Below, piece by piece: positions 9,547 through 51,818 of a stretch of 51,818 nucleotides of DNA. Every line of letters begins with the position of its first letter. The first letter of the stretch is position 1. Position numbers and translations under genes: made by a program. Under the pieces are notes generated by a model. That model was not told the DNA's origin and searched no databases. It saw only the letters and a program-made list of their open reading frames with translations. This stretch comes from Chloroflexota bacterium (GTDB lineage Bacteria; Chloroflexota; Chloroflexia; Thermomicrobiales; CFX8): contig QEUZ01000001.1 of NCBI GenBank assembly GCA_003577355.1, forward strand, positions 1-51,818. Reading direction: 5' to 3'.

Positions 9547-10101
9547 CTACGCAAGTACTGCCATCACGTGTTCAACGAATCTCGGAGCTGATCTGCGGAG
9601 ATTGGCAAGCACGTCGTACACACTCAGCGGCGGGTCCGTCAGGTCAGCAGCCTGTTCTCGGAGAATCGTCAACATCAGGTCGGGCGAGAGTGTCATCAGG
9701 CGTACGAGAAATGCATCGATGCTCGCTACTTCGATGCCGAAGTCGGCCCGTGATGATGCTGGGAAGTCTTTGTCATTTTCTGTGACGATAAGATCCACCC
9801 GGGCATGGACTGCCGCAGCGAGGACATGACGATCTCCCTCATGGTTCGTCATCGAATCGATGATGTTGTCAAATCCGGAAACCAGCGCTTCTGGGAAATA
9901 TCGGCGCATTTGCCGGCACAGCGTCGCAGCCGCCTCCGGTGAGGCGAGGTGCTGTTCAACGAGATTCGACTCAACTTCTAGAAGGATGCGATCGCTCCAG
10001 GTGACACGAAAGAGACCTGCGTCGGCAGCGCGCAGCAGCGTGTCCCTGGGTGCTGCAGGGATCAGCACGTTTGCGTCGAGGAGCGCTACAAGCGCCGCCA
10101 T
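9547..10101 (-). CDS. PIN-domain ribonuclease, type II toxin candidate
   Basis: LLDANVLIPA..., DRHVLAAAVHARVDLIVTENDKDF acidic PIN motifs. Sits 3 nt downstream of the HTH gene. Local drop in GC. Confidence 0.85.
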   Translation of the reverse strand: MAALVALLDANVLIPAAPRDTLLRAADAGLFRVTWSDRILLEVESNLVEQHLASPEAAATLCRQMRRYFPEALVSGFDNIIDSMTNHEGDRHVLAAAVHARVDLIVTENDKDFPASSRADFGIEVASIDAFLVRLMTLSPDLMLTILREQAADLTDPPLSVYDVLANLRRSAPRFVEHVMAVLA

Positions 10102-10104
10102 CTC

Positions 10105-10569
10105 CTACTGTTGTTCTTGCCGCTCGTCGTACATCCCAAGTTGTTGACTCAACGCGGTCAACTCGCGCAGCCCGATCCTTCGCTCTTCGTCGCGGCGCCG
10201 TTTGTACGCCAAAATGTCCTCAAGGCGAATACGGCGATGAGTACCGACGCGCCGGTACGGTATCCGTTCCCGATCAAGAAGCTGAACGAGATAGGGTCTG
10301 GATACATTGAGGAGGTCTGCCGCTTGCTGGGATGTCAATTCCTTGTTTGTGGGCGAGATGCAGACTGGCTCGTCGTTCGCCAGGAGCTGAACGATATGCC
10401 GCAACAGCAGGTAGAGCGTCTCCGGTATTTCGATTTCCTCGCCGGATGGGGTAACGAATCGAGCCGGAGCATTTGACCTGCAATTGAGCAGCCGTTCCAA
10501 TTGAACGTAGGTAGATCGCTCGTTCTCATCAGTTTCTCGTGGACCACTCAGGGTCGTGAATCTTGACAT
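10105..10569 (-). CDS. MerR/excisionase-type helix-turn-helix protein, antitoxin candidate
   Basis: LTSQQAADLLNVSRPYLVQLLDRERIPYRRVGTHRRIRLEDILAYKRRR. Start placed at the second ATG (10569), which has GGGAGAA 6 nt upstream. The track ORF starts at 10584. Confidence 0.8.
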   Translation of the reverse strand: MSRFTTLSGPRETDENERSTYVQLERLLNCRSNAPARFVTPSGEEIEIPETLYLLLRHIVQLLANDEPVCISPTNKELTSQQAADLLNVSRPYLVQLLDRERIPYRRVGTHRRIRLEDILAYKRRRDEERRIGLRELTALSQQLGMYDERQEQQ

Positions 10570-10610
10570 CAATGGTTCTCCCATGTGGATCCAGCCACCG
10601 CTCTCAGCGC

Positions 10611-24349: not shown

Positions 24350-24576
24350 TTTTCTCCCCCTCAGTACGCAGATTTGTCGGTGTGGAGATCAGGCAATCCA
24401 TACGATGCCTGAACCACCCACCGGGCGTAGTCTGTCAACGTCACGATGGCGTGACGAGCAGGAGGTAGATGCGGCGAAGCATCACGATTGCTGGGTCACG
24501 CCGTCCTGGTTGTCTCAGTGGCGGACGGAAATTGACGCAATGTGGCGTCAGGATCGATGCGGATTGGAGACCCAGC

Positions 24577-26241: not shown

Positions 26242-26254
26242 TCTGGAGCGCATT

Positions 26255-27715
26255 ATGTCGACTGAGGCGGTTGATACGACCTATTCCCCCGAAGAGCTGC
26301 TGCGGCTGCTGCGCAACTCGACCTTGTTCGGCGACTTGGCGGAAGCCGACATGCTGCAGTTACTGGCTGAATCGAACATGCGCCACGTGCCAGACGGGGG
26401 GACACTCATCGAAGAAGGCGCGCCGGCAACCGGCATCTACGTTGTCGTCAACGGGGAGCTGGAGGTGCTGCGTAAGGCTGGCGATACCGATGTGCCGATG
26501 GCGGTGCGTGGCAAGGGGGAAGTTATCGGCGAGATGTCGTTGCTGGATGGCGCGCGTCGCAACGCCAGTGTGCGCGCTCGAACACCAGCAACGGTGCTCT
26601 CGATCCCCCGCTCCGCGCTGGAGGAGACCGTGCTGGACAACCCCGAAGCGCTGCTCACCGTGCTGCGCACGGTCGTCTCCCGGTTGCTGAGCGCCGAGGC
26701 GCACCTGGTGCAGCACCAGAAAATGGCGGCACTTGGCACAATGGCCGCTGGGCTGGCCCACGAGCTGAACAACCCGGCTGGGGCGCTGCAACGCAGTGCC
26801 GGGCAATTGCGCGACGCGATTGCCGGCTGGGAGCCGCTGGCACGCGAGCTGGGAGCTGCCGTCTCGGACGACCCCGACGGGCGTATCGACGACATTCGCA
26901 AACAGCTCGCCGAGCGCGGCAGGGAAATGGTCTGGCTCGACCCACTGGAGCGGAGCGACCGCGAGCAGGAGCTGCAAGCCTGGCTGGAACAGTTCGGCCT
27001 GACTGATGCCTGGAAGATCGCGCCACAGCTCGTCGATGGTGGTTGGGGCGTCGCCAGCCTGCAACGTGCCGTTGGCGAAGCGTCGCCGGCCGATGCTGGC
27101 GTCATCCTGCGCTGGCTGGCCGAAGGGCAGACGGTGTTCAGCTTGCTGCAGGAGGTGACCAACGCCGCCAAGGCAATCTCCGAGATTGTGACGGCGGTTA
27201 AGGCCTATACCCGGCTCGACCAGGCGCCGATCCAGGACGTGGACATACATGAGGGACTCGACATCGTGCTCTCGCTCATGCGCCACAAGCTGCGCGGTGT
27301 CACGGTGCTGCGGGAATACGCCTCCGGGCTTCCGCGGGTAACCGCCAACGCTACTGAGCTGAACCAGGTCTGGACGAACCTGATCGATAACGCACTCGAT
27401 GCGATGGAAGCCGGCGCACTGTCCGCAGGTACAGGGCAAACCAAGCGCGTCCTGACCCTTCGGACGGCGTTCGATGCTGATGGCGAGGCTATTCTGGTCG
27501 ATGTGATCGACTCTGGTCCGGGGATCCCGCCCGAGGTATGCAAGCGGATCTACGAGCCATTTTTCACAACGAAGCCGCCGGGCCAGGGAGTGGGGCTTGG
27601 GCTGAGCATTACCTACTCGATCATCCGGCGCCACGGCGGGACCATCCAGGTCGAATCGCAACCGGGTCGGACGGCCTTTACCGTCACGATCCCCATACGA
27701 GGCGAGGTCACATGA
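26255..27715 (+). CDS. Cyclic-nucleotide-binding-domain sensor histidine kinase
   Basis: N-terminal cNMP-binding fold (..GIYVVVNGELEVLRK...GEVIGEMSLLDGARRNASVRA..). H-box AAGLAHELNNPAG, N-box WTNLIDNALDA, G-boxes DSGPGI and GQGVGLGLS. Confidence 0.9.
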   Translation: MSTEAVDTTYSPEELLRLLRNSTLFGDLAEADMLQLLAESNMRHVPDGGTLIEEGAPATGIYVVVNGELEVLRKAGDTDVPMAVRGKGEVIGEMSLLDGARRNASVRARTPATVLSIPRSALEETVLDNPEALLTVLRTVVSRLLSAEAHLVQHQKMAALGTMAAGLAHELNNPAGALQRSAGQLRDAIAGWEPLARELGAAVSDDPDGRIDDIRKQLAERGREMVWLDPLERSDREQELQAWLEQFGLTDAWKIAPQLVDGGWGVASLQRAVGEASPADAGVILRWLAEGQTVFSLLQEVTNAAKAISEIVTAVKAYTRLDQAPIQDVDIHEGLDIVLSLMRHKLRGVTVLREYASGLPRVTANATELNQVWTNLIDNALDAMEAGALSAGTGQTKRVLTLRTAFDADGEAILVDVIDSGPGIPPEVCKRIYEPFFTTKPPGQGVGLGLSITYSIIRRHGGTIQVESQPGRTAFTVTIPIRGEVT

Positions 27716-30700
27716 GCGCCACAATCACCCGCACGACAGCAGCAGCAGCAGCAAGCGCGAACCTGCGTACCCGTGAACCCCGCCGCGGGATGGATGAGCG
27801 ACGCATCGTGACGGTGCTGTTCTGCGATGTCGTGCGCTCGTCGTATCTGGCGGAGCAGCTCGGCCCGGAGGACTGGGCCGATGTGATGCAAGAGGCGTTT
27901 GAGCGGCTGATCGAACCAGTGGAGCGGTACGACGGCTCGATCGGCCGGCTGATGGGCGACGCCATCCTGGCGTTTTTCGGCGCGCCGAACGCACATGAGG
28001 ATGACCCCCAGCGGGCGATCATGGCCGGGCTGGCGATACTCGACGCGATCCAGCCGTTGCGCGACCGTGTACTGCGGACCTGGGGCCTGGACTTCAACGT
28101 GCGTATCGGCATCAACACCGGCGTGCTCGTCGTGGGCGACTTCGGCTCGCGCGACTGGTTCGAGTACACCGCCATGGGAGACGCGATCAACCTGGCGGCC
28201 AAGATCCAGCAGGCAGGCCAGGGTGGCAGGGTGCATGTCGCGACGGCCACCTACCGGCTCACTGAACCACTGTTTGCGTTTGAGCCAGCAGGCGAGATTG
28301 AGATCGGTGGCGCAGGACGACGTGAAGCAGTCTACCGGGTCGTAGGCCAATTGGATGTCGCTGGCAAGCTGTGGGATGTCGCTGGCATGGGCGCGCCGCT
28401 AGTTGGGCGTGAGGCAGAGCTCGACATCCTGCGGCAGGCATTCGACCGGCTCTCGGAAGGGCAGGGCGGGATCATCTTCCTGGTCGGCGAAGCAGGGCTG
28501 GGCAAGAGCCGGCTACTGGACGAGCTGCGGCGCTACCGTGAAGCATCCGGCAAGCAAGGTGAGATCGGCTGGGTCGAAAACCGGCTCATCTCGTACGAGG
28601 CATCGCTGCCCTATGGCGCACTGCAATCGCGCTTCCGCAAATCGTTCGGCATTCAGCGTCATGACTCTCCGGAGGTCGTGCACACCAAGCTGAACCAGGT
28701 GCTGGCGCCATTCCCTGCCGACATCCGCGCGCGCGCAGTGACAGTCGTCGAGCGGGCGCTGTCGATCGGTGGGGATGGTCTCTTACCTGCGCCGTCCCCG
28801 GCGGAAGCGGAACGGGCGGGACAGGAGTTCCGCCGCGAGCTCTACAGCGTTGCGCTGCACCTGCTGCGTGGCTGGAACGGCGGCGGCCCGCTCGTCTTCG
28901 TCAGCGACGATCAACACTGGAGCGACGCACCGTCGGCCGATGTGCTGCTGCATGCCATGCAGCTTGTTGAGAGCATGCCGATCCTGTTTGTCTGTGCGCT
29001 GCGGCCGGAAACGCATCGCCCGGTCTGGAGCATGAAGGAAACGGCGCAAGCGCGTTACCCAGACCGGACCACCGAGATCCGCCTGCGCCCGCTGGAGTCG
29101 CAGGATAGTGCGCGGTTGATCGACGCGTTTCTGGGCGGCGGCGATGCGCCTGCCGAGTTGCGGCGGAGAATACTGGAGCGCGCGGAAGGTAACCCGCTGT
29201 TTGTTGAGGAGATGGTCCGTTCGCTCATCGACCGGGGATTGCTGGAAGCGTGCGGCGACGACGAAGGACTGTGCTGGAAGCCAGTTGCTGGCGCGGACCT
29301 GAGTAGCGTCGTCATTCCCGACAGCTTGCAAGGGTTGTTCCAGGAGCGGGTCGATCGGCTCGACCCGGTCGCGCGACAGGTGCTGCAGCAGGCCGCCGTC
29401 GTGGGGAGGACGTTCTACAAGATCGTGCTGGCAGAGCTCACTGACCCCAGCGTATCGCTGGACGATGTGCTGGAGACATTGAGCCGCGCCGACCTGATCC
29501 GAGAATCGAGCCAGGCCCCCGAACAGGAGTTCGCGTTCCGGCACCCACTCATTCTTGAGACGGTGTACCAGGCGATACCACGTCGCCGACGGCAGGAGTT
29601 CCACCTGCGGGTTGGGGAGGTGATCGAGCGCCTGTTTGCAACGCGACTGGACGAACGTGCTGGACGGATCGGCCACCACTACTACGAGGCGGCCGACCCA
29701 CGTGCTGTGGATTGGCTTGTGCGGGCGGCGGAGCAGGCCCAGCGCGTCTACGAGCCGAACGCTGTGCTGGAGGTGCTGCGGCGTGCTGAAGAGCTCGCAA
29801 CCAGGTTGAGCCTGCCAATGCCACCAGCGGCGTGTCTCCTGCGGGGGCACGCTCATGAGCTGACCGGCGACTATGATGCGGCCCGCGAGGACTTCCAGCA
29901 CGCGCTGGAAGTCGCGCGTGCTTCTGCGGATGCGCGCGCGGAGTGGGAAGCGTTGATCGGGCTGGGACTCGCCTGGTCAGAACGGGACTACCCGCGAGCG
30001 GGGCAACTGTTCCAACAGGCGCTCGCGCTGGCCCGCTCCATTGGCGACGATACCCTGCTAGCACGCAGCCTGAACCGGCTGGGGAACTGGTACTCAAACC
30101 TCGAGCAGCCTGACAAGGGGATTGAGGTCCACAGCGAAGCGCTGGAGATCTTCCACCGCGTTGGCAGCGAGGCTGGCACGTCGGAGACACTCGACCTGCT
30201 CGGTATCGCGCGCTTCCTGGCCGGTGACCTGCGCGCCAGCGCCGAGGTGTACGATGATGCGATCGCCCTATTCTCGCGCCTGGGAGACCGGCGTGGGCTG
30301 GCTTCCAGCCTGGCCATGCGGGTGCTGGCGACGGGTAGCGAGCAGAGCCTGACTGTTGACCCACGTAACGTCGCGCTGGACGACCTCGTGCGCGATGGTG
30401 AACGCGCGCTGGACCTGACGCGCGATATTCGCTGGCAAGCTGCTGAAGCGTTTACCAACTTCTGCCTGGCGTCGGCGCTGCACGTGCGCGGCGAGTTCAG
30501 CAAGGCGCTCACGTTCGGGGTCGAAGGGTTGCAAATTGCCGAGAGCATCGAACATCGCCAGTGGACCCTGGCAAGCAATGTCGCAATCGCTGCGGTCGAG
30601 TTCGACCTCGGCATGGCCTCGGCAGCCCGACAACGCTACGAATATGCGCTCGCGATCGCGCATGAGATCGGTTCAGTGCATTGGCGTCGTTCGGTCAGCG

Positions 30701-31203
30701 CGTTGCTCGCTTCAGTACTGATCGCCCAGGGCGCCTACGAAGACGCCCGACGTATGCTCGATTCCGTCGTCAGCGATAGCGCAGCGCCGACATCGTTGGC
30801 ACAGCGCGAAGGTTGCTATCATCGCGCCGTGTTGCGCCTCGCCACAGGTCAACCGCAGGCCGCACTGGATATCCTGGACCAGTTGGTCGATCTCACCCCT
30901 GGCAGCGAACGGCGACCGTCGGCACATGTGGGGTATCTGCGTGGACGGGCACTGACGGCGCTCGGTCGCGTGGACGAAGCCGAAGCTGCACTGCTCGCGG
31001 CGCGTCGTCGCGCCGAGTCCTTGGGGTTCCGCCCACTCTCCCTTGAAATTGAGCTGGCTCTTGCAGAGCTCTACACCCGGGTTGGGAGAGCTGCCGAGGC
31101 GGAGGATCCCAAGGCGCGTGCTGACGTCTGGCGCGCTGCTCTGGCTGCGGCCATCGATGATCCACAACTGCGCGCGCAATTTGTGGGTGTGGCCCTCGGG
31201 TGA
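27712..31203 (+). CDS. Class III adenylate/guanylate cyclase fused to P-loop NTPase and TPR repeats
   Basis: Start at ATG 27712 overlaps the kinase stop (ATGA). Cyclase motifs VTVLFCDVVRSS, GRLMGDAILAFFGAP, RIGINTGVLVVGD, YTAMGDAINLAAKIQ. Walker A VGEAGLGKSRLL. Long TPR-like C-terminus. The track ORF start at 27538 lies inside the kinase gene. Confidence 0.9.
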   Translation: MSATITRTTAAAAASANLRTREPRRGMDERRIVTVLFCDVVRSSYLAEQLGPEDWADVMQEAFERLIEPVERYDGSIGRLMGDAILAFFGAPNAHEDDPQRAIMAGLAILDAIQPLRDRVLRTWGLDFNVRIGINTGVLVVGDFGSRDWFEYTAMGDAINLAAKIQQAGQGGRVHVATATYRLTEPLFAFEPAGEIEIGGAGRREAVYRVVGQLDVAGKLWDVAGMGAPLVGREAELDILRQAFDRLSEGQGGIIFLVGEAGLGKSRLLDELRRYREASGKQGEIGWVENRLISYEASLPYGALQSRFRKSFGIQRHDSPEVVHTKLNQVLAPFPADIRARAVTVVERALSIGGDGLLPAPSPAEAERAGQEFRRELYSVALHLLRGWNGGGPLVFVSDDQHWSDAPSADVLLHAMQLVESMPILFVCALRPETHRPVWSMKETAQARYPDRTTEIRLRPLESQDSARLIDAFLGGGDAPAELRRRILERAEGNPLFVEEMVRSLIDRGLLEACGDDEGLCWKPVAGADLSSVVIPDSLQGLFQERVDRLDPVARQVLQQAAVVGRTFYKIVLAELTDPSVSLDDVLETLSRADLIRESSQAPEQEFAFRHPLILETVYQAIPRRRRQEFHLRVGEVIERLFATRLDERAGRIGHHYYEAADPRAVDWLVRAAEQAQRVYEPNAVLEVLRRAEELATRLSLPMPPAACLLRGHAHELTGDYDAAREDFQHALEVARASADARAEWEALIGLGLAWSERDYPRAGQLFQQALALARSIGDDTLLARSLNRLGNWYSNLEQPDKGIEVHSEALEIFHRVGSEAGTSETLDLLGIARFLAGDLRASAEVYDDAIALFSRLGDRRGLASSLAMRVLATGSEQSLTVDPRNVALDDLVRDGERALDLTRDIRWQAAEAFTNFCLASALHVRGEFSKALTFGVEGLQIAESIEHRQWTLASNVAIAAVEFDLGMASAARQRYEYALAIAHEIGSVHWRRSVSALLASVLIAQGAYEDARRMLDSVVSDSAAPTSLAQREGCYHRAVLRLATGQPQAALDILDQLVDLTPGSERRPSAHVGYLRGRALTALGRVDEAEAALLAARRRAESLGFRPLSLEIELALAELYTRVGRAAEAEDPKARADVWRAALAAAIDDPQLRAQFVGVALG

Positions 31204-39324: not shown

Positions 39325-39864
39325 TCAGTCGAACCAACCCACCGGTATGCCGAACTCTTCGGCGGTGCAGCGCAGGATATCGTCGGTGACACGGTCCACG
39401 AGCGCGCGCTTTTGGGGGCTGTCGGGACCGTTGAGTGTGATCAGGTCTTCGTTGAACAGAGTCTTGCTGACATCAACCGCGCATGCGCTCGCCTGATCGA
39501 TGATCGGGCCCATGAGCCAAACCAGTTGGTCCGGCAGGTTTTCTTCCAGGCAGCGGGTGAGGATCTCGTTGGTCAGCGAGGGGTCATCCTGCGAAAGGGT
39601 ATAGAGCAGGCCCGGCCCGATGTTGCGTTCGATGCATGCGCTGACGCTATCGCCAGGGACGATTGCGACCGTCGGAGCGATGAAGGGCGTCGCTGTTGGT
39701 GTGGCCGTTGGCGTCGGCGTCGGCGTCGGTCGGGGTGTCGGCGTGCTGGTGGCTGTCGGCGTCGGTGGCAGGGGTGTGGGCGTGGGTGTTGGGTCAGCAC
39801 TGAACGGCCCGCAGGCCACGATGCTCACCAGCACCGTTCCCACAATGACAACGCCTGGTTTCAT
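39325..39864 (-). CDS. Lipoprotein of unknown function with Pro/Thr-rich linker
   Basis: Start at ATG 39864 (GGAGGA upstream). MKPGVVIVGTVLVSIVAC lipobox, (PT)n linker, then a four-Cys globular domain. Confidence 0.7.
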   Translation of the reverse strand: MKPGVVIVGTVLVSIVACGPFSADPTPTPTPLPPTPTATSTPTPRPTPTPTPTATPTATPFIAPTVAIVPGDSVSACIERNIGPGLLYTLSQDDPSLTNEILTRCLEENLPDQLVWLMGPIIDQASACAVDVSKTLFNEDLITLNGPDSPQKRALVDRVTDDILRCTAEEFGIPVGWFD

Positions 39865-39942
39865 GGCGTGGTCCTCCAGACTGCAGGTGTATCCGGCCGT
39901 CGGTCGCCGTCGCAGGATCATACTCTTCGCGATCAAGCGAGT

Positions 39943-39971
39943 TTGACCACCGCACTGCCGCGCCGCAGAAT
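39943..39971 (+). promoter_or_regulatory. Candidate promoter for the 40045 gene
   Basis: TTGACC-N17-CAGAAT. Confidence 0.4.
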
Positions 39972-40044
39972 GGGGACGCTGCGGAGGGCGCGCTGGACTT
40001 CAACGCCGGCGCGGGACGCCAGCGTGGGCTGGGAGGGATGTGGG

Positions 40045-40578
40045 ATGCGGATATTCTTGATCGTCGCGGCGTCGTTCGGAGGGTTTCTGGTCGTCTGTTG
40101 CGTGCTTGGCATCTTCGTGGGGTTGCCGCAGCTGCGTGATGAGCTGGAGTCGGAGGTGCACGAGGCCGTCTCTACCGAGGTCGCGCGGCGGATTCCGGCC
40201 ATCCCTGGAACTGGCGCAGAGCCGGGGGAGTACATCATCACCCAGGAATCACTCCAGGCGAGTATTCGCGAGAACGCTGATAACGAGCGCGATGCTGAGA
40301 ACCTTTTCGTGCGGATTACGCCGGCCCAAGTGGAAGTCGGGCTTGTTTCGCGTGGGCAGGATGCCACCTACTCTGGGGTGCCAGCTGCCGAGAACGGCCA
40401 GTTGGTGATGCATGATATGGATTCCAACAACCGGTTCTTCGAGTTTGTACTGTCACCAGACCGCCTTGGCCGGACAATCGCCGAGGCGGTCAACAGCTAC
40501 CTTGCGCAAAACGGGCTCCAACTGCAGAGCCTGGAGCTGCAGGATGGTCAGATGGTGCTGATCACCGTCGAAGCCTGA
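40045..40578 (+). CDS. Membrane-anchored hypothetical protein
   Basis: MRIFLIVAASFGGFLVVCCVLGIFVGLP... N-terminal anchor. GGGAGGG 7 nt upstream. The long upstream part of track ORF 39412..40578 is antisense to the lipoprotein gene and Arg/Gly-rich. Confidence 0.6.
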   Translation: MRIFLIVAASFGGFLVVCCVLGIFVGLPQLRDELESEVHEAVSTEVARRIPAIPGTGAEPGEYIITQESLQASIRENADNERDAENLFVRITPAQVEVGLVSRGQDATYSGVPAAENGQLVMHDMDSNNRFFEFVLSPDRLGRTIAEAVNSYLAQNGLQLQSLELQDGQMVLITVEA

Positions 40579-43732: not shown

Positions 43733-45297
43733 ATACCACGCTCCAAACCTGCTGCGGCCCGTTCAGCAAGCATGATGCACGTCAGGTTCGTGTTGGCACG
43801 CACAATGCTTGGCATGACCGACGCATCGACGATGTGCAGGTTGTCGATGCCATGCACCCGCAAGTATTGGTCAACGACAGCGCCTTCGTCTCCCACTGGC
43901 CCCATGCGACACGTCGCCACCGGGTGATAAATCGTGTTCACCGTCGCGAGGACATAGTGGTTGAGTGCTGTATCGTCCGCAAGGAGGGCCTCGTTGGGGA
44001 CAATGCCAGCATGGGCGACTGGGCGGCCGGCGAACTGATCGAGTGGCGGGGTGTGGGCGAGGCGCCAGGCAAGGCGCAGGCCATCACGCAGGCGACGGGC
44101 GTCTTCCGGGTGGCCGGCGTAGTTGAGGTCGATTATCGGTGGGGCATGTGGGTCGGCGCTGGCCAGTTTCAGGCTGCCATGTCCGCATGGTCGTTGCACC
44201 CCAGGGGCCATGCTGAGATAGGCTTGGCGGCCGCCTCGCGCCGGTATGGACTCGTTCTCCAGGTAGTCGCGTGGCGTGAAGATGTGGAGCTGCATGTCGT
44301 TGGTTTCCTGAGAACCTTCGGCAGTGTAACGTAGCATCACTTCGTGGGTGTCGCGCTGGGGGTCGTACTCAGCCGGCGTCTCAAAGCTGATCCAGCAGCG
44401 GAAGTGGTCGTAGAGGGTTGCGCCAACTCCGGGGAGGTCCACGACCGGCGCGATGCCCAGCCCGCGCAGGTCATCGGCTGGGCCAATGCCGGAGCGTAAC
44501 AGGATAGCAGGCGAACCAAGTGCACCAGCGGCCAGGGTCACCCGTGCGCCATGGACCTGCTGTACCTGCCCACCCCGCTCGACTTCCACACCGACCACCT
44601 GCGTGCCTTCAAGCAACAGGCGACACACCGTCGTGTGCGGGGCAATCGTCAGGTTCAGACGATGCTGCGCCGGATAGAGGTGACTGATGGCCGTCGAGAT
44701 GCGGCGTCCATCGCGCAGGTTCATCGGCAATGGGCCGACGCCGGTGGCATCCGGGTGGTTGGAATCGCGGGTATAGGGATAGCCAACTGCCTGGCAAGCT
44801 GCGATGAACGCATGCGAAACGGGATGCAGCTGCTCATCACTGTAGCGGGCAATTGGTACTGCCCCACCTCTACCGTGGTTGGTGACATCTTCGGCGAACT
44901 CGGGGTCATCTTCGAGAGAACGGAACCACGGCAGCACGTGTTCCCAAGCCCAGATGGGGTTATCCAACGCAGCCCAGGTATTGAAGTCATCCGGTGACCC
45001 ACGTAGTGCGACGATGCCGTTGACTGCCGAAGAACCACCAGTCACCTTGCCACGTGGATAGGGAATTGTGCGGTTCGGTGTGGCGCTGGCCTGGTAGCCC
45101 CAATCGTGGTCGTGGAGTGGGTTATTCGCGCCGCACCAGACGGTGAGCAGTGACGCGGGTGTCGTCGCGATCGAGGTGTATGCCGGGCCGGCTTCAAGGA
45201 GCAGCACCGAGCGCGACGGGTCCTCGCTCAAGCGTGCCGCAAGCACCGCGCCACTCGAACCGCCGCCGATCACGATATCGTCGTAGAGCGCAGGCAT
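43726..45297 (-). CDS. GMC family (choline-dehydrogenase-like) FAD oxidoreductase
   Basis: YDDIVIGGGSSGAVLAARLSEDPSRSVLLLEAG..., GGSSAVNG, C-terminal ..YHPVATCRMG...VVDASVMP... Confidence 0.93.
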   Translation of the reverse strand: MPALYDDIVIGGGSSGAVLAARLSEDPSRSVLLLEAGPAYTSIATTPASLLTVWCGANNPLHDHDWGYQASATPNRTIPYPRGKVTGGSSAVNGIVALRGSPDDFNTWAALDNPIWAWEHVLPWFRSLEDDPEFAEDVTNHGRGGAVPIARYSDEQLHPVSHAFIAACQAVGYPYTRDSNHPDATGVGPLPMNLRDGRRISTAISHLYPAQHRLNLTIAPHTTVCRLLLEGTQVVGVEVERGGQVQQVHGARVTLAAGALGSPAILLRSGIGPADDLRGLGIAPVVDLPGVGATLYDHFRCWISFETPAEYDPQRDTHEVMLRYTAEGSQETNDMQLHIFTPRDYLENESIPARGGRQAYLSMAPGVQRPCGHGSLKLASADPHAPPIIDLNYAGHPEDARRLRDGLRLAWRLAHTPPLDQFAGRPVAHAGIVPNEALLADDTALNHYVLATVNTIYHPVATCRMGPVGDEGAVVDQYLRVHGIDNLHIVDASVMPSIVRANTNLTCIMLAERAAAGLERGIW

Positions 45298-45392
45298 GCT
45301 CGTCCCCCCGATCCTGCCAACCGGCCCAACGTGTTGCGATAATCATCGCCGATTGGCACGCAGCACGCGAGGATCGTCCGCCGGAACGCCAA

Positions 45393-45422
45393 AACCCTTG
45401 CCCGACCGAGCGGACAAGGGTT
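45393..45422 (-). terminator. Intrinsic terminator after the response-regulator gene
   Basis: The minus strand reads AACCCTTG-14 nt-CAAGGGTTTTGG, preceded by a second stem AAGCGCC...GGCGCTT. Confidence 0.55.
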
Positions 45423-45448
45423 CAAGCGCCGGTCAACAGGTGGGGCGC

Positions 45449-46117
45449 TTAGACCGGTTGGACTGGGGTCGACGCAAGCCCACGCGACATGGCGTAGATC
45501 GCTGCTTGGGTGCGGTCTTTCACTTCCAGCTTTTGGAAGAGTATCGACAGGCGGTTTTTGACGGTGCTTTCGGCCAGGTCGAGGGTTTGAGCGATCTCCT
45601 TGTTGGATTGCCCGCTCGCGACCAGGCGCAGCAGCTCAATTTCTCGCGGCGTGAGGCCGGCGACATTCTGGTGCTCGGTCATCTCCGACATGCGCCGGAA
45701 CTCGTTGAGCAGCTTGGTAACCAGGTACGGCTCGAGGATCGACTCCCCACGCGCGGCGGCACGAATGGCTTCGATGACTTTGCCAGCTTCGCTGTTCTTC
45801 AAGAGGTAGCCGTTGGCGCCGGCGCGAATGGCCCGGATGATGTAGGCATCTTCAGCAAACATAGAGAGAATAATGATGCCCATGGCCGGGTAGCGCCGCC
45901 GCAGGTCTGCGGTGGCTGCAATGCCGTCCATGCCGGGCATCGAGATATCCAGGAGGATGACATCCGGGCGATGCTTTTCAACCGCCTCAATCGCCTTGGC
46001 GCCGTCACCGGCTTCGGCCACGATCGTGAAGTCGCGCTCCATTTCCAGGAGCTGGCGGAGCGCTTGCCGGAAGAGAACGTGATCATCGGCGAGAACGATA
46101 GATACCGCTCGATTCAT
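45449..46117 (-). CDS. NarL/FixJ-family response regulator (receiver + LuxR-type HTH), no adjacent kinase
   Basis: Start at ATG 46117 (MNRAVSIVLADDHVLFRQ...). DVILLDISMPGMDG. C-terminal LTPREIELLRLVASGQSNKEIAQTLDLAESTVKNRLSILFQKL. Confidence 0.92.
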   Translation of the reverse strand: MNRAVSIVLADDHVLFRQALRQLLEMERDFTIVAEAGDGAKAIEAVEKHRPDVILLDISMPGMDGIAATADLRRRYPAMGIIILSMFAEDAYIIRAIRAGANGYLLKNSEAGKVIEAIRAAARGESILEPYLVTKLLNEFRRMSEMTEHQNVAGLTPREIELLRLVASGQSNKEIAQTLDLAESTVKNRLSILFQKLEVKDRTQAAIYAMSRGLASTPVQPV

Positions 46118-46545
46118 ATGTGGACCGCCTTCTGTTCCAGTCCCAGCCACCAGCGTAGCGAACGAATCACCCCGTACCCGTCGCGCCTGTACCGACGCGA
46201 AACCATTCTACGGAGTTGAATGCGGTAGGTTGATCAACCATTGGTCACGACCGCGCTAGTACAGCGGTGCCAGAGATCTTCCTGTACGTACAGTAATGCA
46301 CGCCTGTGTCGCGTGCCCGGCGACGCCTGAGCGGCGCGCAGCCGGGGTGCCATGCTTTCCTTGTCTCTTGCGTGCGTGCTGGTGCGTCACACTGTGGCCC
46401 TGGCCGGTCAGGTTGCGCCGCATCGTATCGGCGGCCGGGGCGCTCATGGGTCCGTGCCGATCGAGCACTGCTGTGGTTTCTATAATTGGGCACGGCGGGA
46501 GCGCGTCCCGGCGACTGCGTAATGGGGTTGGGGAGGAACGCGGGC

Positions 46546-47238
46546 GTGCTCTTTGGGTTGCGCCGGCAGCAACGGCCAGCCGTGCCAGCGGTTGCATCCG
46601 AGGTCAGCGCTGCTGCCGATGATGACGCCGCTCTTATCGCGCGAGCGCGGGCAGGCGATCTGGACGCGTTCAACGGGCTTGTCGCGCGGCACGAGCGCGC
46701 CGTCTACGGCGTTTGCCTGCGTTACCTGCGCTCCCCTGAAGCCGCTGAAGACGCTGCACAGGACACCTTCATCCGCGCCTGGCGGGCGCTCGACACGTTT
46801 CGCAACGACAACGGCGATGGCTTCCGCTCATGGCTGCTGACTATCGCCGCCAACCGCGCGCGTGACATGTTACGTTCGAACGTGCGCCGGCCGGCTGACT
46901 CACTCGATGCGCGCCTCGACGACGAAGAGCAGACCTGGGAGCCGGAAGCGCCGGACGAAGCCCCGTTGGACTTTGCCGCGCGCGACGAGCTCGGGGCGCA
47001 CCTGGAGCGGGCACTTGGACAGATCAGTCCAGACCAACGCCTGGCGATCATCCTGGGCGACATCCACGGCCATTCATACGACGAGATCGCGGCCATCACT
47101 GGCGTAGCGATCGGCACCGTGAAATCTCGGATCAATCGAGGGCGCGCGCGCCTGCGGGAACTCTTGCTGGCAGACTCAACAGCGCGGGAACTTTTCAACC
47201 GCTCCGGTCGTCAGGAGAGTGACGAAGGACGTGGCTGA
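46546..47238 (+). CDS. ECF-type RNA polymerase sigma-70 family factor
   Basis: Region 2 (..VYGVCLRYLRSPEAAEDAAQDTFIRAW..) and region 4 (..SYDEIAAITGVAIGTVKSRINRGRARL..). GTG 46546 has GGGGAGGAA 7 nt upstream. The track ORF starts earlier, at 46486. Confidence 0.88.
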   Translation: MLFGLRRQQRPAVPAVASEVSAAADDDAALIARARAGDLDAFNGLVARHERAVYGVCLRYLRSPEAAEDAAQDTFIRAWRALDTFRNDNGDGFRSWLLTIAANRARDMLRSNVRRPADSLDARLDDEEQTWEPEAPDEAPLDFAARDELGAHLERALGQISPDQRLAIILGDIHGHSYDEIAAITGVAIGTVKSRINRGRARLRELLLADSTARELFNRSGRQESDEGRG

Positions 47239-47288
47239 ATGAGCCGCCGCGCCGCACGCGCCCGCAGCCGATAGAAAGGAGGGCCGAG

Positions 47289-48176
47289 TTGGACGACGCA
47301 GACAACGACATCCAGCGGCGCTCCAATGGCGCGCCGGACGGCGGCGACCGGGCAACCCTGTGGCAGGGCGAGCATCTGCACCCGGAGGGCCTCTCGGAGT
47401 ACCTCGATGGCGCGGGGCTGTTGCGAGCGTCCGAGCGTGATGCAGTCAGGGCACACCTTGCTGATTGCGCTGAGTGCCGGGCAGTGCTGAGTGACCTGCA
47501 GGCGGTGGTGGCAAGTCTGGCTGCGCTACCGCTGCCCGCGCTGCCGCGCTCCTTCGCACTGACCCCGGACATGCTGGAGGCACGCGACCTGCCGCAGCAA
47601 CTTGAGGTCGGGCAGAAGCCGATCGACATGCTCGCGACTGCCGCCTGGCGCAGACGCCAAATTGCGCTGACGCGCTACGCCAGCGTCGTCGCGGCCGTTC
47701 TCCTGGTGCTGGTGTTCGGCATTGACCTGCTGACGGGTGGGTCTGAAAACGCGGACCAGGCGGCGTTCAATGTACCGGAGGCGTTCCAGCAGACATCGTC
47801 GAGCGCGCCTGCCCCGCCGCAGGAACCGGGCGAGCGGAATGCCGCTCCTGCGGAGGGCGATGCCACACCACCGGCGACTGAGGATGCGCCCGCGGCATCC
47901 GCCGAACCAACTCCGGCAGCCGCAGCTGGCGCCGCTGAGGATGCCGCCGCGACGGAAGCGACTGACGACGTTGCATTGTCCACCGCGCCAGATGAGGACA
48001 AGGATGGCAAAGAGCCCAGCACAACGCCTGCTGACGAGGTGACTGTCGCACCCAGCACAGATGCTCAGCGCAGCGAGCCAGACATGCTGCGTCTGCTGCA
48101 GTTCGGGTTGGCCTTGGGGTTAGCCTGGTTATTGGCGGCACTCGTTCTGCTCCCGCGCATATCGCCGAGGCGCTAA
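47289..48176 (+). CDS. Anti-sigma factor (zf-HC2 type) with two TM segments flanking an acidic Ala/Pro-rich region
   Basis: H-x3-C-x2-C motif HLADCAEC. AAGGAGGG 5 nt upstream of the TTG start. Immediately downstream of the ECF sigma gene. Confidence 0.8.
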   Translation: MDDADNDIQRRSNGAPDGGDRATLWQGEHLHPEGLSEYLDGAGLLRASERDAVRAHLADCAECRAVLSDLQAVVASLAALPLPALPRSFALTPDMLEARDLPQQLEVGQKPIDMLATAAWRRRQIALTRYASVVAAVLLVLVFGIDLLTGGSENADQAAFNVPEAFQQTSSSAPAPPQEPGERNAAPAEGDATPPATEDAPAASAEPTPAAAAGAAEDAAATEATDDVALSTAPDEDKDGKEPSTTPADEVTVAPSTDAQRSEPDMLRLLQFGLALGLAWLLAALVLLPRISPRR

Positions 48177-48224
48177 GCCGGAACGCATGCCAGTCCGTAC
48201 AGGATGGATTGGAAGGAACCGGAC

Positions 48225-48968
48225 ATGCATTTACGAACACGGGCACTGCCTATCGCCGCAGCGATCGTCGTGATGGCGTTGGGGGCGGCGATCGTGACCA
48301 GCGCGTTGCGCGAATCGCCGAGCTCGGGCCTGCGGGCGGCTGAGATCGATACCACCCGCACGGTCAGCGTTTCCGGCATTGGCCGGGTGACGCTGACGCC
48401 GGATACCGTCTACATGACCCTCGGCGTCGATGTGATCGACCCCGATCTGGGTGTGGCGCAATCGCAGGCGGCCACCCGCATGGATGACGTGATCGCGGCC
48501 GTGCTGGACCGCGGCGTAGCGCAGGCGGATATCCAGACAGCGACCTACGCGATCAACGTCAACCGCGACTACAACCAGCCGGGTCAGCCGGTCATCGGCT
48601 ACATCGTCACCCACACCGTCACCGTCAAGGTGCGCGATGTCGACAACGCAGGCAACGTGATCGCCGGGGCGGTCGATGCGGGTGCGAACAATGTCAGCGG
48701 AGTCTGGTTCGGGGTTGAGGACCAGGCTGGCGCGCTGGCGCAGGCGCGCGAGCTGGCAGTGGCCGATGCGCGAGCCAAGGCCGAAGACCTGGCGCGTCTG
48801 GTCGGGTCATCCCTCGGGCCGGTGCTCTCGATCAGTGAAAGCTCCAGTGGTGGCGCGCCGGTGCCATACGACGGCGTCGCCGGAGCAGACAAGGCGACAG
48901 CGGTGACGATCAACCCGGGTCAGACCGAAGTTACGCTCAGCGTTTCCGTCGTCTACGCGCTCAACTAA
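48225..48968 (+). CDS. SIMPL (DUF541) domain periplasmic/secreted protein
   Basis: ..VSVSGIGRVTLTPDTVYMTLGV...IGYIVTHTVTVKVRDVDNAGNVI...ARAKAEDLARL... Start at ATG 48225 after GGAAGGAA. Confidence 0.88.
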   Translation: MHLRTRALPIAAAIVVMALGAAIVTSALRESPSSGLRAAEIDTTRTVSVSGIGRVTLTPDTVYMTLGVDVIDPDLGVAQSQAATRMDDVIAAVLDRGVAQADIQTATYAINVNRDYNQPGQPVIGYIVTHTVTVKVRDVDNAGNVIAGAVDAGANNVSGVWFGVEDQAGALAQARELAVADARAKAEDLARLVGSSLGPVLSISESSSGGAPVPYDGVAGADKATAVTINPGQTEVTLSVSVVYALN

Positions 48969-48987: not shown

Positions 48988-49030
48988 CGCACAGCGCCCC
49001 GCCGCGACGCCGGTGGGGCGCTGTGCGTTG
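48988..49030 (+). terminator. Intrinsic terminator of the sigma/anti-sigma/SIMPL operon
   Basis: CGCACAGCGCCCC-14 nt-GGGGCGCTGTGCG (13-bp perfect stem) followed by TTG. Confidence 0.7.
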
Positions 49031-49155
49031 GCATGCGTGCCTACACCATCAGTCCACGGCTGCTGAACTGCAGGACAGCTGGCGCGCTGTCCGCTGGAGC
49101 GGCGCGCTGGCGTTGTACCCGCGCTGTAATGGTGGGCGGTCCCGGGGCCGCTGTG

Positions 49156-49181
49156 GGAACCGGGAGCGCGGTCGTGGCGTC
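49156..49181 (+). promoter_or_regulatory. ECF-like promoter motif GGAAC-N17-CGTC upstream of the lipoprotein gene
   Basis: Lies about 90 nt upstream of ATG 49272 and directly downstream of the ECF sigma operon terminator. The motif is short, so a chance match is possible. Confidence 0.3.
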
Positions 49182-49271
49182 AACGTTGCAGACGCCAGGA
49201 CCAGTTGGCGGAGCGGCCGGCCGTCGACGCAGATGTCGACGCCAGGAAAGTTGGACAGAGGAGTACCACCG

Positions 49272-50273
49272 ATGCAGGGACGTAGAGGAGCGCGAACAGC
49301 AGAGCGGCCAGGCCGTGCGCTGCGGGTCTTTTCGCTCATCGCGCTTGCCGCGATGTTCGCGATGTTGCTGGCGGCGTGCGGTGAGGAGGACAACGGCGGC
49401 AACCCCCCGACGCCGACAACCCCACCGACCGCGACCCCAACCGTGGCGCCGCCAAGCCCGACGATCACGCCGGACGCGATCGTGCACCCGATGGGCCGTG
49501 ACGACATCGTGCTGATCGTGGAAGTCAGTGGCGGGTTCGTGCCGCCGTTCGTGCTGGCAACTGAGCTGCCGACCTTTGTGTTGACCGGCGATGGCCGCGT
49601 GATCGTGCAAGGCCCGATGATCGAGATCTACCCACAGCCAGCGTTGCCGAACCTGCGAGTGACCCAGCTGACCGAGGAGGGGGTCCAGGCGATCCTGCGG
49701 GCCGCCAAGGAGGCCGGGCTGCTGGATGGTGACCTGAACCTGCCGTACGACGGCATCGCCGATGCACCGACGACCTTCGTGACGACCAACGCTGGCGGTC
49801 AGGTCTCGGTGGTCAGCGCCTACGCGCTGGGCATGGAGATCGACGACTCGCTGGCAACCCCGGAGGTGGCTGCGGCGCGCGAAAAGGTCGCGGCGTTCAT
49901 CGCCAAGCTGAGCGACCTGTCCTCGTGGCTCGCGCCGAACGACATCATCTCGCAGGACGAGGAGTACGCGATCACCCGTATGCAGATCGTGACCCAGCCC
50001 GCTGACCTGTCCTTCGGCAGCGGCGACGACAGCATCACACCGCAGGTGAAGCCGTGGCCACTGGCAATTGCGCCGGATGCGATCGGTGAGCCGTTCTTCA
50101 TGGAGCAGTCGCGCTGCGTCGTCCTCGAAGGGGCCGACCTGGAGACAATGTTGACTGCGCTGGCCGACGCCAACCAGCTCACCCGCTGGACGAGCGGCGA
50201 TGCGGAATACGTCGTTTACATCCGCCCGCTGATCGCCTCACAGGCAGGTTGTGTCGCGCCGGGGAACCGCTAG
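49272..50273 (+). CDS. Lipoprotein of unknown function with Pro/Thr-rich linker
   Basis: Start at ATG 49272 (AGAGGAG upstream). ..LIALAAMFAMLLAAC lipobox, PTPTTPPTATPTVAPPSPT linker, then a globular domain of about 270 aa with no family recognised. Confidence 0.7.
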   Translation: MQGRRGARTAERPGRALRVFSLIALAAMFAMLLAACGEEDNGGNPPTPTTPPTATPTVAPPSPTITPDAIVHPMGRDDIVLIVEVSGGFVPPFVLATELPTFVLTGDGRVIVQGPMIEIYPQPALPNLRVTQLTEEGVQAILRAAKEAGLLDGDLNLPYDGIADAPTTFVTTNAGGQVSVVSAYALGMEIDDSLATPEVAAAREKVAAFIAKLSDLSSWLAPNDIISQDEEYAITRMQIVTQPADLSFGSGDDSITPQVKPWPLAIAPDAIGEPFFMEQSRCVVLEGADLETMLTALADANQLTRWTSGDAEYVVYIRPLIASQAGCVAPGNR

Positions 50274-50301: not shown

Positions 50302-50333
50302 ACGGGAGCCGGGACGTTACGCCCGGCTCCCGT
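50302..50333. terminator. Hairpin between convergent genes (bidirectional terminator candidate)
   Basis: ACGGGAGCCGGG-8 nt-CCCGGCTCCCGT, perfect 12-bp stem between stops at 50273 and 50354. Confidence 0.6.
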
Positions 50334-50353: not shown

Positions 50354-51818
50354 CTAGAACATCGGTTCGCAATTGCCGCCGTTACAGACTTCGTTCGAGC
50401 CGCACAGGTTGTCGTCATCGACACAGGCGCCGCTATCGCAGACGCTGCATGGGCCGAACAGGGACTGACAGAACAGGTCGTCATCGACACACACGCCGCC
50501 GTCGCAGCCGCTGCATGCGCCGTACTGGCTCTCGCAGTAGTTGTTGTCATCTTTACACTCACCGCCGTCGCAGACGCTGCACTCGCCTGTGCAGAGCGAC
50601 GAATCGTCAGTGCATGTACCGCCGTCGCAGACGCTGCATGAGCCGTACGCGATCCAGCAATACGTGTCGTTATCAACGCAGCTGCCCCCAGTGCAGACCG
50701 CGCACTCACCGTTGCAGCGAGAATCGTCGTCGGTGCAAATGCCGGCGACACACGTTTCGCAGAAGCCGAGGCATTCGTCCTGTGAATCCTCGCACACGCC
50801 ACCGTTGCAAACGCTGCACGGGCCGTTCAGCGTCTGGCAGTACTCGTCGCTATTGACACACTGGCCAGCCTCGCAGACCGAACACTCTCCGATAACGATG
50901 CTACAGTAGTAGTCATCGTCGACGCAGGCGCCGGTGTATTCATCGCAATAGGAGCAGCCGGTGCAGCCTTCGACGCACGTATTCGTGTATTCATCGCATT
51001 GCTGGCAACCCGAGCACGTCGGTATGCAGAAACCCGTGTCTAGGTCGCAGTCGTGACAGGGCGGGCAGGCGGGTTCACAGGTTTCGGTAAGCGCGTCGCA
51101 GTAGGTGCAGACGGGGCAGTCGCTCAGGCACTCGTCGCTGTACTCGTCGCAATGTTCGCATTCCAGGCACCTCGACACGCATTGATTGCTGTACTCGTCA
51201 CAGTCCTCGCACGGGCCGCACAGCGAGGTGCAGACCCCAGCGTCGCATGCTTCACACGGGCCGCATTCGATTGGGACGCAGGAATCGAGGTCGACGTCGC
51301 ATGTTTCGCAGTCGGAGCAGCGCGGCACGCAGACCCCAGCGTCGCAATCTTCACAGGGGCCGCACTCAACCGGCACGCACTGCCCGAGGTACGGGTCGAA
51401 GGGAGTACAGGGATCCGGGCAACTCGGTACGCACTGCCCGCCTTCGCAGATCTCGTCCGCGTCGCAGGTGTTGACGCACGTCCCGCCGTGACACTCGTGG
51501 CATGGCTCGCAGACCAGCGGCTGGCATGTGCCGGTCTGCGGGTCGCACGGCGTGCAGGGGTCGGTGCACTTGGCCACGCAGGTGTTGTTGCTGCAGCGCT
51601 GGCAGTTGGTGCAGGTCGTCTCACACACCCCCGTGTCCGGGTTGCAGCGCTGGCACGGCCCACACACCTTCGCCTTGCACTGCCCCGTCGCCGGGTCGCA
51701 CTCCTGGCAGGTCGGGCATGGCTTGGCCGAGCACACCCCCGTGGCCGGGTCGCACGTCTGGCACTTGGTGCACTTCGGCACACACACCCCGTTGCTGCAC
51801 TTCTGGCACCGGTCGCAG
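50354..51818 (-). CDS. Cysteine-rich acidic tandem-module protein (C-terminal part; gene continues beyond the right edge)
   Basis: Track ORF 50354..51787. The same frame stays open to 51818 and keeps the motif (..CDRCQKCSNGVCVPKCTKCQTCDPATGVC..). About 100 Cys in 477 residues by hand count, organised as repeated four-Cys modules. Confidence 0.8.
   Translation of the reverse strand, partial: CDRCQKCSNGVCVPKCTKCQTCDPATGVCSAKPCPTCQECDPATGQCKAKVCGPCQRCNPDTGVCETTCTNCQRCSNNTCVAKCTDPCTPCDPQTGTCQPLVCEPCHECHGGTCVNTCDADEICEGGQCVPSCPDPCTPFDPYLGQCVPVECGPCEDCDAGVCVPRCSDCETCDVDLDSCVPIECGPCEACDAGVCTSLCGPCEDCDEYSNQCVSRCLECEHCDEYSDECLSDCPVCTYCDALTETCEPACPPCHDCDLDTGFCIPTCSGCQQCDEYTNTCVEGCTGCSYCDEYTGACVDDDYYCSIVIGECSVCEAGQCVNSDEYCQTLNGPCSVCNGGVCEDSQDECLGFCETCVAGICTDDDSRCNGECAVCTGGSCVDNDTYCWIAYGSCSVCDGGTCTDDSSLCTGECSVCDGGECKDDNNYCESQYGACSGCDGGVCVDDDLFCQSLFGPCSVCDSGACVDDDNLCGSNEVCNGGNCEPMF

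Follow-up and report, generated by a model that had tools for sequence, protein, structure and literature searches.

The stretch of DNA analyzed here, referred to below as the window, comprises positions 1 to 51,818 of contig QEUZ01000001.1 (NCBI GenBank assembly GCA_003577355.1) from a Chloroflexota bacterium of the Thermomicrobiales (CFX8), and its far end carries the 3' part of a gene for an acidic, cysteine-rich repeat protein (Table 1). The gene lies on the minus strand and ends with a TAG at positions 50354-50356, upstream of which the frame is free of stops for 487 codons counted from position 51817, in agreement with a preliminary description of this DNA that had proposed an open minus-strand frame running from the window edge to a stop at 50354. 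Each of the remaining five frames contains 3-22 stops over the same region. The GC content at the third codon position (GC3) is 0.81 (GC1 0.53, GC2 0.56), the same as in the adjoining genes, and the minus-strand frame is thus the coding one; the same results speak against translation of another frame, which that description had named as a possible objection. Its view that the protein is cut by the window edge is likewise correct, as the first codon of the window already lies inside the repeat array, which opens with CDRCQKCSNGVCVPK. The GTG at position 51787, listed as the start of the open reading frame (ORF), falls within a module, and therefore the true start codon and any signal peptide are located beyond the window edge.

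Repeat genes often break assemblies, and this one is cut at the contig/window end while a relative, P0012, looks frameshifted, all of which could mean that the frame is open by chance, that the repeats misled the assembly or that the gene is a pseudogene. We regard this explanation as close to negligible, given the 487 stop-free codons against the interrupted alternative frames, the GC3 shared with the neighbors, the divergence of the modules at the DNA level and the existence of protein-level relatives in independent samples. Specifically, a single DNA-level tandem repeat is found in the gene, and its copies match at only 75%, indicating that the array is old and diverged rather than produced by misassembly. 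Additionally, a strong hairpin with a perfect 12-bp GC-rich stem lies 20 nt past the stop codon, between the Cys-rich gene and a convergent lipoprotein gene, where it is a candidate two-way terminator. Its predicted folding energy is -36.6 kcal/mol (z = -5.4; none of 200 shuffled sequences was equally stable), and it was not flagged in a consensus terminator scan because no T-run adjoins it.

The composition of the protein is extreme. Cysteine accounts for 105 of the 487 visible residues (21.6%), compared with a mean of 0.96% across the 35 other ORFs of the window (binomial P ~3e-105), and the longest Cys-free run is at most 9 residues; the preliminary figures of about 100 Cys in 477 residues thus captured the richness, if not the exact counts. 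The fragment is also as acidic as had been described, with 87 Asp and Glu against 14 Lys and Arg and a pI of ~4.05. Translation gives the expected C-terminus (..CNGGNCEPMF), and the 487 residues contain neither a hydrophobic segment, as anticipated, nor an LPxTG motif. No "head" domain and no C-terminal anchor can be discerned in the visible part.

The fragment consists of tandem four-Cys modules, which number 27 (18 short, eight longer and one terminal) and not about 26 as estimated earlier. The gaps between successive cysteines are strictly periodic, being 2, 2, 4 or 6, and 3 or 4 in residues 1-304, and 3 or 6, 2, 4 and 6 in residues 305-471. The short modules have the spacing C-x2/3-C-x2-C-x4/6-C-x3/4, the 6-residue loop being reduced to 4 in some of them, and 67 strict modules across the family yield the consensus C-(P/G)-(P/A)-C-(Q/E)-x-C-(D/N)-P-x-T-G-x-C-(V/E)-P-x-x. 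The longer, C-type modules follow the spacing C-x3/6-C-x2-C-x4-C-x6. Both were recognized in the preliminary description, which treated them as separate kinds; since the core formed by the second and third cysteines (C2-x2-C3) is invariant in both, and the second differs only in having a longer C1-C2 loop and linker, they represent one module type with different loop lengths. The uninterrupted array of the window protein, 17 consecutive perfect modules, is the longest of the family, the relatives reaching at most 14.

Table 1. Features of the window discussed in the text.
Feature	Positions	Strand	Remarks
Cys-rich repeat protein, C-terminal 487 codons and stop	50354..51817	-	5' end past window edge
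18 short modules, 15-20 aa, residues 1-305	50903..51817	-	Module parsing; residue 305 is the first Cys of the next C-type module
Two adjacent three-Cys modules, residues 118-151	51365..51466	-	CDADEICEGGQCVPS without C2; CPDPCTPFDPYLGQCVPVE with Phe at C3
8 longer (C-type) modules, 19-22 aa, very acidic, residues 305-471	50405..50905	-	(Y)C-x3/6-C-x2-C-x-G-G-x-C-x-D-D-x3
Sole tandem repeat at DNA level in this gene; unit 66 bp, 2.6 copies, 75% match	50408..50581		Inside C-type modules
Terminal 16-residue module CGSNEVCNGGNCEPMF, residues 472-487	50357..50404	-	C1, C3 and C4 present; C2 absent
Perfect 12-bp GC-rich hairpin, candidate two-way terminator	50302..50333		RNA fold
Lipoprotein gene, convergent neighbor	49023-50273	+	No Pfam match
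ECF sigma factor (Sigma70_r2/r4_2), zf-HC2 anti-sigma factor and SIMPL/DUF541 genes in a row	46486-48968	+	Beside lipoprotein gene
Three signaling genes in a row	24469-31203	+	Domains
PIN_3 domain gene adjoining HTH_17 gene	9547-10584	-	GC3 0.61 vs 0.75-0.81 in neighbors

The few departures from the four-Cys pattern are informative with regard to how the cysteines are paired. In residues 118-151, a module without C2 is directly followed by one in which C3 is replaced by Phe (compare the paralogous module CTDPCTPCDPQTGTC). This arrangement, a C2-less module and then a C3-less module, recurs in seven proteins, namely the window protein, P0002, P0004, P0009, P0016, P0024 and P0121, whereas across 329 perfect modules the reverse order of loss is never found and an isolated loss only once. 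Such an ordered, paired loss implies a cystine between C2 of one module and C3 of the next, C2(i)-C3(i+1), from which it follows that the last module of an array has no need of a C2. In agreement with this rule, the last module lacks C2 and keeps C1, C3 and C4 in the window protein, P0029, P0052, P0008, P0005 and P0088, and likewise in six arrays whose end adjoins a Cx5CCx3C domain. As this last module retains C1 and C4, these two would pair within the module; in P0007 and P0015, the modules retain no cysteines other than C2 and C3, C1 and C4 having been lost together. The tally is exact, 27 modules of four cysteines minus two for the adjacent pair and one for the terminal module giving the observed 105 (27x4-2-1), and the sole partnerless Cys of the fragment is C3 of its first module, whose partner would fall upstream of the window. 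We infer from these sequence patterns a disulfide map in which C1 and C4 pair within each module, while C2(i)-C3(i+1) bonds link each module to its successor. Loss that is paired and specific to position is the signature of cystines and not of four-ligand metal sites.

The module belongs to no family in current libraries. The preliminary description had recognized no named family, and the profile searches that it put forward as a check agree: Pfam-A and NCBIfam yield no family for the window protein at E<=10 and thus no characterized repeat family, a phmmer search of PDB sequences yields no match at the same threshold, and none of more than 25 relatives has a Pfam or NCBIfam model over the repeat. 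Among the Pfam and NCBIfam profiles without a match to the window protein at E<=10 are those of EGF-like, TNFR and furin-like domains, the Myxococcus cysteine-rich repeat (TIGR02232/DUF4215), Fer4, metallothioneins and zinc fingers. Additionally, a full-text literature search returned no description of the repeat or of the conserved leader discussed below.

The spacing of the cysteines might nevertheless suggest a metal-binding role, the second of the two put forward in the preliminary description. The motif CxxCxxC occurs 15 times in the fragment, and a Cys content of 21.6% would not be out of place in a poly-iron-sulfur (polyferredoxin-like) or metal-thiolate (metallothionein-like) protein, which would be loaded in the cytoplasm, exported in the folded state by the twin-arginine translocation (Tat) pathway and, outside the cell, serve to conduct electrons or to sequester metal. 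However, CxxCxxCxxxC, with or without a following Pro, is absent from the 487 residues, as are CC, CxC and the DnaJ-type CxxCxGxG. Four cysteines per 15-22 residues are too dense for a ferredoxin fold, and their loss as ordered pairs across modules, together with a terminal module short of exactly one Cys, does not fit this explanation, which we hold to be quite unlikely. A structural array of zinc knuckles or ribbons, intracellular or exported, with one Zn per four-Cys module, would account for the four cysteines, including a CxxC, in each module, and β-hairpin "knuckles" are typical of zinc ribbons. Yet a per-module Zn site would not be expected to have the defect of one module offset by a defect in its neighbor, nor would a terminal module have three cysteines, and with neither CxxCxGxG nor a zinc-finger profile detected we consider such an array very unlikely.

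Assignment to three known classes was also examined and rejected. Metallothioneins are under ~80 aa, with CxC, CC and CxxC clusters and no regular secondary structure, as opposed to a fragment of at least 487 aa with confidently modeled hairpins, no CC or CxC and no Pfam match. The 4Fe-4S ferredoxin class was discarded on the absence of the cluster motif and of a Fer4 profile and on a spacing of 2,2,4 or 2,2,6, and the DnaJ-type/zinc-ribbon class on the absence of CxxCxGxG and of a Pfam match and on the inter-module loss of cysteines. In 2x[4Fe-4S] ferredoxins and polyferredoxins the likeness is restricted to the local CxxCxxC spacing, the fourth Cys lying at +4 or +6 in the window protein instead of +3 and not being followed by Pro.

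Relatives are few and distant. An indexed search of 5.8 billion clusters returned two matches, P0001 (phmmer E 1.8e-13, 40% identity over 61% of the query) and P0002, and a profile built on these two gave five matches; P0012 was found by BLASTP (42% identity, E 4e-26). A profile of the C-terminal part added P0148 (E 1.7e-28), P0149 and P0150 to P0005 and P0088, and when 1.84 billion representative proteins were searched exhaustively with a profile, only 146 matched at E<=1e-3, 15 of them at E<=1e-10. The closest relatives are 40-42% identical to the window protein, and all those examined are singleton clusters. Pattern scans recovered three weak loci from 185,579 species genomes (two from Myxococcota, one from Thermomicrobiales) and 10 loci from JGI metagenomes, with identities of 28-47% and no ortholog among them. 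The longer C-type module is also present in P0070, P0148 and P0150, which bear Sec signals, and in P0005, P0088 and P0149, which bear Tat-type leaders. Collectively, these proteins (P0001, P0002, P0004, P0006, P0009, P0022, P0070 and P0148, among others) form an unnamed family of four-Cys hairpin modules, to which the window protein is joined by similarity over several modules and by the tandem consensus, either C-x2/3-C-x2-C-(D/N)-P-x-T-G-x-C-x3/4 or the G-G form of it with a short loop and a long linker. In some members the modules stand beside other regions: a C-terminal part containing an HExxH motif in L009, a 230-aa N-terminal domain in P0030, and a Thr/Ser-rich linker and C-terminal domain in P0118. 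In these cases the modules are placed as a spacer next to other extracellular regions.

Several further observations on these sequences deserve mention. P0012, encoded on a 44-kb contig in ENA, has stretches, HLHEVPGVPQRD and NLPGVQPGDRDLRGEGVWTVPDLQ among them, that read as if the DNA for modules had been translated in the wrong frame, and is likely a frameshifted or misassembled copy. At L005:3547-7089, in the Thermomicrobiales metagenome-assembled genome DATBFX010000463, two adjacent genes encode proteins that begin with the same Tat-type leader and continue with a different type of Cys-rich repeat, and the second gene product has a Hint/intein-like end (Hom_end_hint E 1e-8, Hint_2) and a sub-threshold Dicty_CTDC match. 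The proteins at L010:4122-6344, L016:4852-7017, L011 and L014 start with a Cys-free N-terminal domain of ~250 aa, beyond which a Cys/Asp polymer extends for hundreds of residues, a CxxC recurring at nearly every third residue (CDPCDPCDPCDMCDPCD...). Pfam has no match for them, and they represent a Cys-rich architecture different from the four-Cys modules.

Evidence for export comes from the relatives, whose N-termini were read by inspection. In this way, an export signal was recognized at the start of every relative with a complete N-terminus. Approximately 120 of the 146 profile matches share the nearly invariant leader M(D/N)xxRFDxLT(R/K)xLAxxxSRRxxLKxLxG...AxA, that is, a twin-arginine (Tat-type) motif preceded by an FDxLTRxLA box, whose carriers include P0001, P0002, P0004, P0005, P0006, P0009, P0010, P0022 and P0030. 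Tat substrates carry an S/T-R-R-x-F-L-K motif, then a hydrophobic stretch and an AxA cleavage site, and by inspection the motif is present in these ~120 matches. No Pfam or NCBIfam model is specific to this leader, and PF10518 matches P0009 and P0030 only below threshold. Other relatives use different routes: Sec or lipoprotein signals are found in P0017, P0070, P0148, P0150 and the ORFs of L007 and L009/L012, while P0007 and P0015, which carry more than 10 repeats of a two-Cys module (C-x2-C-(D/N)-P-x-T-G-x10), have prepilin-type N-termini, GRTLLE(I/M)(M/L)GVLA, consistent with a putative type IV pilin-like processing. By homology, the missing N-terminus of the window protein most likely carries a twin-arginine-type export leader, and the protein itself would thus be exported. 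The leader fronts otherwise unrelated Cys-rich mature parts, many of only 50-70 aa, and, being shared by more than 100 Cys-rich proteins, it constitutes an unexplained targeting signal in its own right; one idea is that a dedicated chaperone or targeting factor may exist for it. A search of the window found the leader on no other gene.

These signals also bear on the metal-binding explanations. The Tat-type leader of most relatives is what a poly-iron-sulfur or metal-thiolate protein would be expected to have, Tat being the usual route for cofactor-containing proteins, but relatives with Sec, lipoprotein or prepilin signals are exported unfolded. For the zinc array, the export of the relatives is a further difficulty. 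Additionally, the abundance of matches composed of the conserved leader and a short Cys-rich mature part (50-100 aa), along with the small, knottin-sized modules, raises the question of whether the window protein could be a polyprotein precursor, in which the leader directs export or processing and the array is cut into small Cys-rich peptides of the bacteriocin/defensin-like or ribosomally made, post-translationally modified (RiPP) kind. We find this highly improbable: no protease sites recur between modules, the linkers are only 3-6 residues long, the proposed C2(i)-C3(i+1) bonds would hold the fragments together, no maturation enzymes were seen beside P0001, P0002, P0005 or P0148, and the modules also serve as spacers in multi-domain proteins.

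The locus of one relative suggests how such proteins may be oxidized. In L006 (4453-7782), the P0002 gene has as its direct neighbor on one side a tatA/B/E gene (4453-4719) and on the other a gene for a 550-aa fusion protein that combines MauE/DoxX with two thioredoxin-fold domains and carries CHC, CGPC and CGFC motifs. The locus has the appearance of a compact cassette in which a Cys-rich Tat substrate is combined with the means for its export and oxidation. In this regard, MauE proteins are reported to be able to replace DsbB and to use a CXC active site (2026 preprint, 10.64898/2026.03.05.709764). Tblastn found no copies of the MauE-thioredoxin fusion or of TatA in the window or the other loci. 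An analogue exists for biogenesis only. [quoted passage not shown] The position of P0002 between tatA and the MauE-thioredoxin fusion recalls this MauA system with MauE/MauD, from which the window protein differs in having no sequence or fold relation to MauA and no MauE or tat gene nearby.

Structure prediction, another of the checks foreseen in the preliminary description, returned one β-hairpin per module, with a predicted local distance difference test (pLDDT) score of ~90 for each half of the fragment. With the whole fragment and a 22-row alignment as input, AlphaFold2 modeled residues 1-280 at a pLDDT of 87-96, the score dropping to ~65-70 over residues 281-300, and gave each module two short strands. 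When residues 285-487 were modeled alone, with C-type relatives aligned, the mean pLDDT was 92.3, and each module formed a hairpin and a short helix. Foldseek searches of both models against the PDB recovered weak matches, nearly all of them extracellular cystine-rich stalks, including the Entamoeba Gal/GalNAc lectin heavy chain, LRP2/megalin, SCARF1, EGFR, CD40/4-1BB, Pfs25 and ADAM/disintegrin proteins, and reovirus sigma1 was also among the weak matches in both searches. Among predicted viral structures (BFVD), the best matches were adenovirus fiber shafts (E 1.6e-7), and giant-virus proteins of unknown nature were retrieved too. No iron-sulfur, zinc or other metalloprotein appeared in the fold searches of either model, which argues further against both metal-binding explanations.

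The comparison with these systems concerns principles of construction. The top PDB match of both models, the Entamoeba lectin heavy chain, has an elongated extracellular arm whose small modules contain two antiparallel strands and in some cases a helix; disulfides between the domains stiffen this arm (PMC12948311), and the same principle is proposed here for the window protein. However, the match is not significant (E 2.5e-3 and 0.6, template modeling (TM) score <=0.16, 18-20% identity), no sequence relationship was detected, and the lectin is eukaryotic, with irregular pseudo-domains in place of the strict 15-22-residue period found here. EGF-like, TNFR and furin-type arrays (LRP2/megalin, SCARF1 8hna, EGFR, CD40, 4-1BB) were the most common Foldseek matches, albeit weak ones (E 2.5e-3 to 2, TM <=0.3). 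They are likewise core-less, disulfide-held extracellular hairpin rods that act as spacers or binding platforms, but their modules span 30-45 residues, against 15-22 here, and have no Pfam match in the window protein. In addition, EGF-, TNFR- and furin-type disulfides stay within one module, whereas in the window protein one bond per module would cross to the next. The adenovirus fiber shaft and the reovirus sigma1 body (triple β-spiral) are built from a ~15-residue repeat of two short strands and a turn. No BFVD matches score better than these viral fibers (E 1.6e-7 to 1e-5, with TM of 0.1-0.19 and identity of ~10%), but the shafts are Cys-free and stabilized by trimerization, not by cystines. 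The likeness extends to local repeat geometry only. Finally, the Myxococcus cysteine-rich repeat (TIGR02232/DUF4215), Dicty_CTDC (PF00526) and CXCXC (PF03128) are also secreted tandem Cys-rich repeats, and the weak relatives from the genome collection include the Myxococcota lipoproteins L003 and L004 and the Thermomicrobiales protein with the sub-threshold Dicty_CTDC match. The repeat lengths and Cys spacings of these families differ from those described here, and none of their models matches the window protein.

Taken together, the evidence favors an exported, non-enzymatic, covalently laddered rod or stalk, a reading to which we assign a probability of about 0.7. Of the two roles considered in the preliminary description, a disulfide-knotted extracellular repeat protein thus gains support from the export signals of the relatives, the paired loss of cysteines, the hairpin models and the stalk-like architectures of the relatives, while the iron-sulfur or polymetal role does not, in view of the absent cluster motifs and profiles and of cysteines lost as inter-module pairs. 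According to this reading, each module of 15-22 residues would fold as a small β-hairpin without a hydrophobic core, held by cystines, with C1-C4 closing the hairpin and C2 stapling it to C3 of the next module. The 27 modules would in this manner be chained covalently into a continuous, rigid and strongly anionic rod, presumably resistant to proteases and heat. The protein would be exported by the twin-arginine-type leader expected, by homology, on its missing N-terminus, and oxidized by the extracytoplasmic thiol-oxidizing machinery of the cell. The rod may serve as a surface or matrix spacer, as an adhesin fiber, or as a fiber that binds cations or minerals through its Asp/Glu-rich linkers.

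Several points weigh against the rod or stalk. The N-terminus of the window protein lies beyond the window, so no signal peptide has been seen on the protein itself. The disulfide map derives from the bookkeeping of cysteines and not from Cys-Cys distances in the models. In the model of the whole fragment, residues 303-487 have a pLDDT of ~30, and the models were built on shallow alignments of 22 and 11 rows; all PDB fold matches are statistically insignificant, and TM scores for the viral fibers are very low. Since Tat normally exports folded, often cofactor-loaded proteins, a bound metal retains some plausibility. The tatA/MauE context belongs to one relative only, P0002, and within the 51-kb window nothing is functionally linked to the Cys-rich gene, which has no tatA- or MauE-like context there. 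As to the neighborhood and distribution of the gene, which the preliminary description had suggested examining, relatives do occur in independent samples, but a conserved gene neighborhood was not found: the loci of P0001, P0002, P0005 and P0148 have no genes in common with one another or with the window.

A more far-reaching proposal is that bacteria possess an uncatalogued repeat fold of which the window protein is the longest array known, in which hairpins of 15-22 residues joined by inter-module cystines form an anionic rod, served by a dedicated FDxLTRxLA-SRR leader and MauE-type oxidation, and that this fold is a counterpart of eukaryotic stalks and viral fiber shafts. We put this forward tentatively, as a possibility with the odds somewhat against it.

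Cystine-stabilized tandem modules are standard in eukaryotic extracellular proteins, and to our knowledge bacterial examples are rare and have been poorly characterized. Extracellular repeat rods held by cystines are known as such; new are the module, which is absent from libraries and has no solved relative, and the interlocking disulfide scheme proposed for it. The family thus has neither a Pfam or NCBIfam model nor a solved structure, yet its fold is predicted in silico with confidence, and the unusual interlocking of disulfides, which appears to set it apart, would make the whole array one covalent unit. If correct, this would add a new repeat family to the catalogues, provide a test case for the formation of dozens of disulfides in Tat-routed proteins, connected with the recently proposed MauE route of oxidation, and offer a very small and rigid module, resistant to heat and proteases, that protein engineers might be able to use. 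Nothing ties the truncated gene to a larger system, and the finding is therefore a solid curiosity rather than the solution to an open problem.

On the other strand, convergent with the Cys-rich gene, lie genes for a lipoprotein, a SIMPL/DUF541 protein, an ECF (extracytoplasmic function) sigma factor and a zf-HC2 anti-sigma factor. In the lipoprotein gene, the longest ORF starts too early, the lipoprotein signal (LIALAAMFAMLLAAC/GEEDNGG) being located ~100 codons in and followed by a Pro/Thr-rich linker. The three genes beside it look like an envelope-stress type module. The window, which has a GC content of 61-67%, also encodes AAA_16-GerE regulators and a LytR_cpsA_psr protein, and contains no rRNA, tRNA or Rfam match. 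Its gene content (these regulators, the cyclase-AAA_16-TPR protein, LytR_cpsA_psr and the ECF sigma factor), along with the Thermomicrobiales relative, would suit a Chloroflexota- or Actinomycetota-like genome. Four long ORFs or parts of ORFs (107-940, 5517-6581, 45296-46219 and the first half of 39412-40578) have no Pfam match, are Arg/Gly-rich and have a low GC3; they look like shadow frames in a GC-rich genome and not like genes. The adjoining PIN_3 and HTH_17 genes, with their deviating GC3, are probably an acquired toxin-antitoxin pair. Lastly, the first of the three signaling genes encodes a fusion of a response-regulator receiver with a pyridine-nucleotide-disulfide oxidoreductase, the second a cNMP-binding histidine-kinase-like ATPase and the third a 1221-aa adenylate/guanylate cyclase-AAA_16-TPR protein, so that this row resembles a cyclic-nucleotide signaling cluster.

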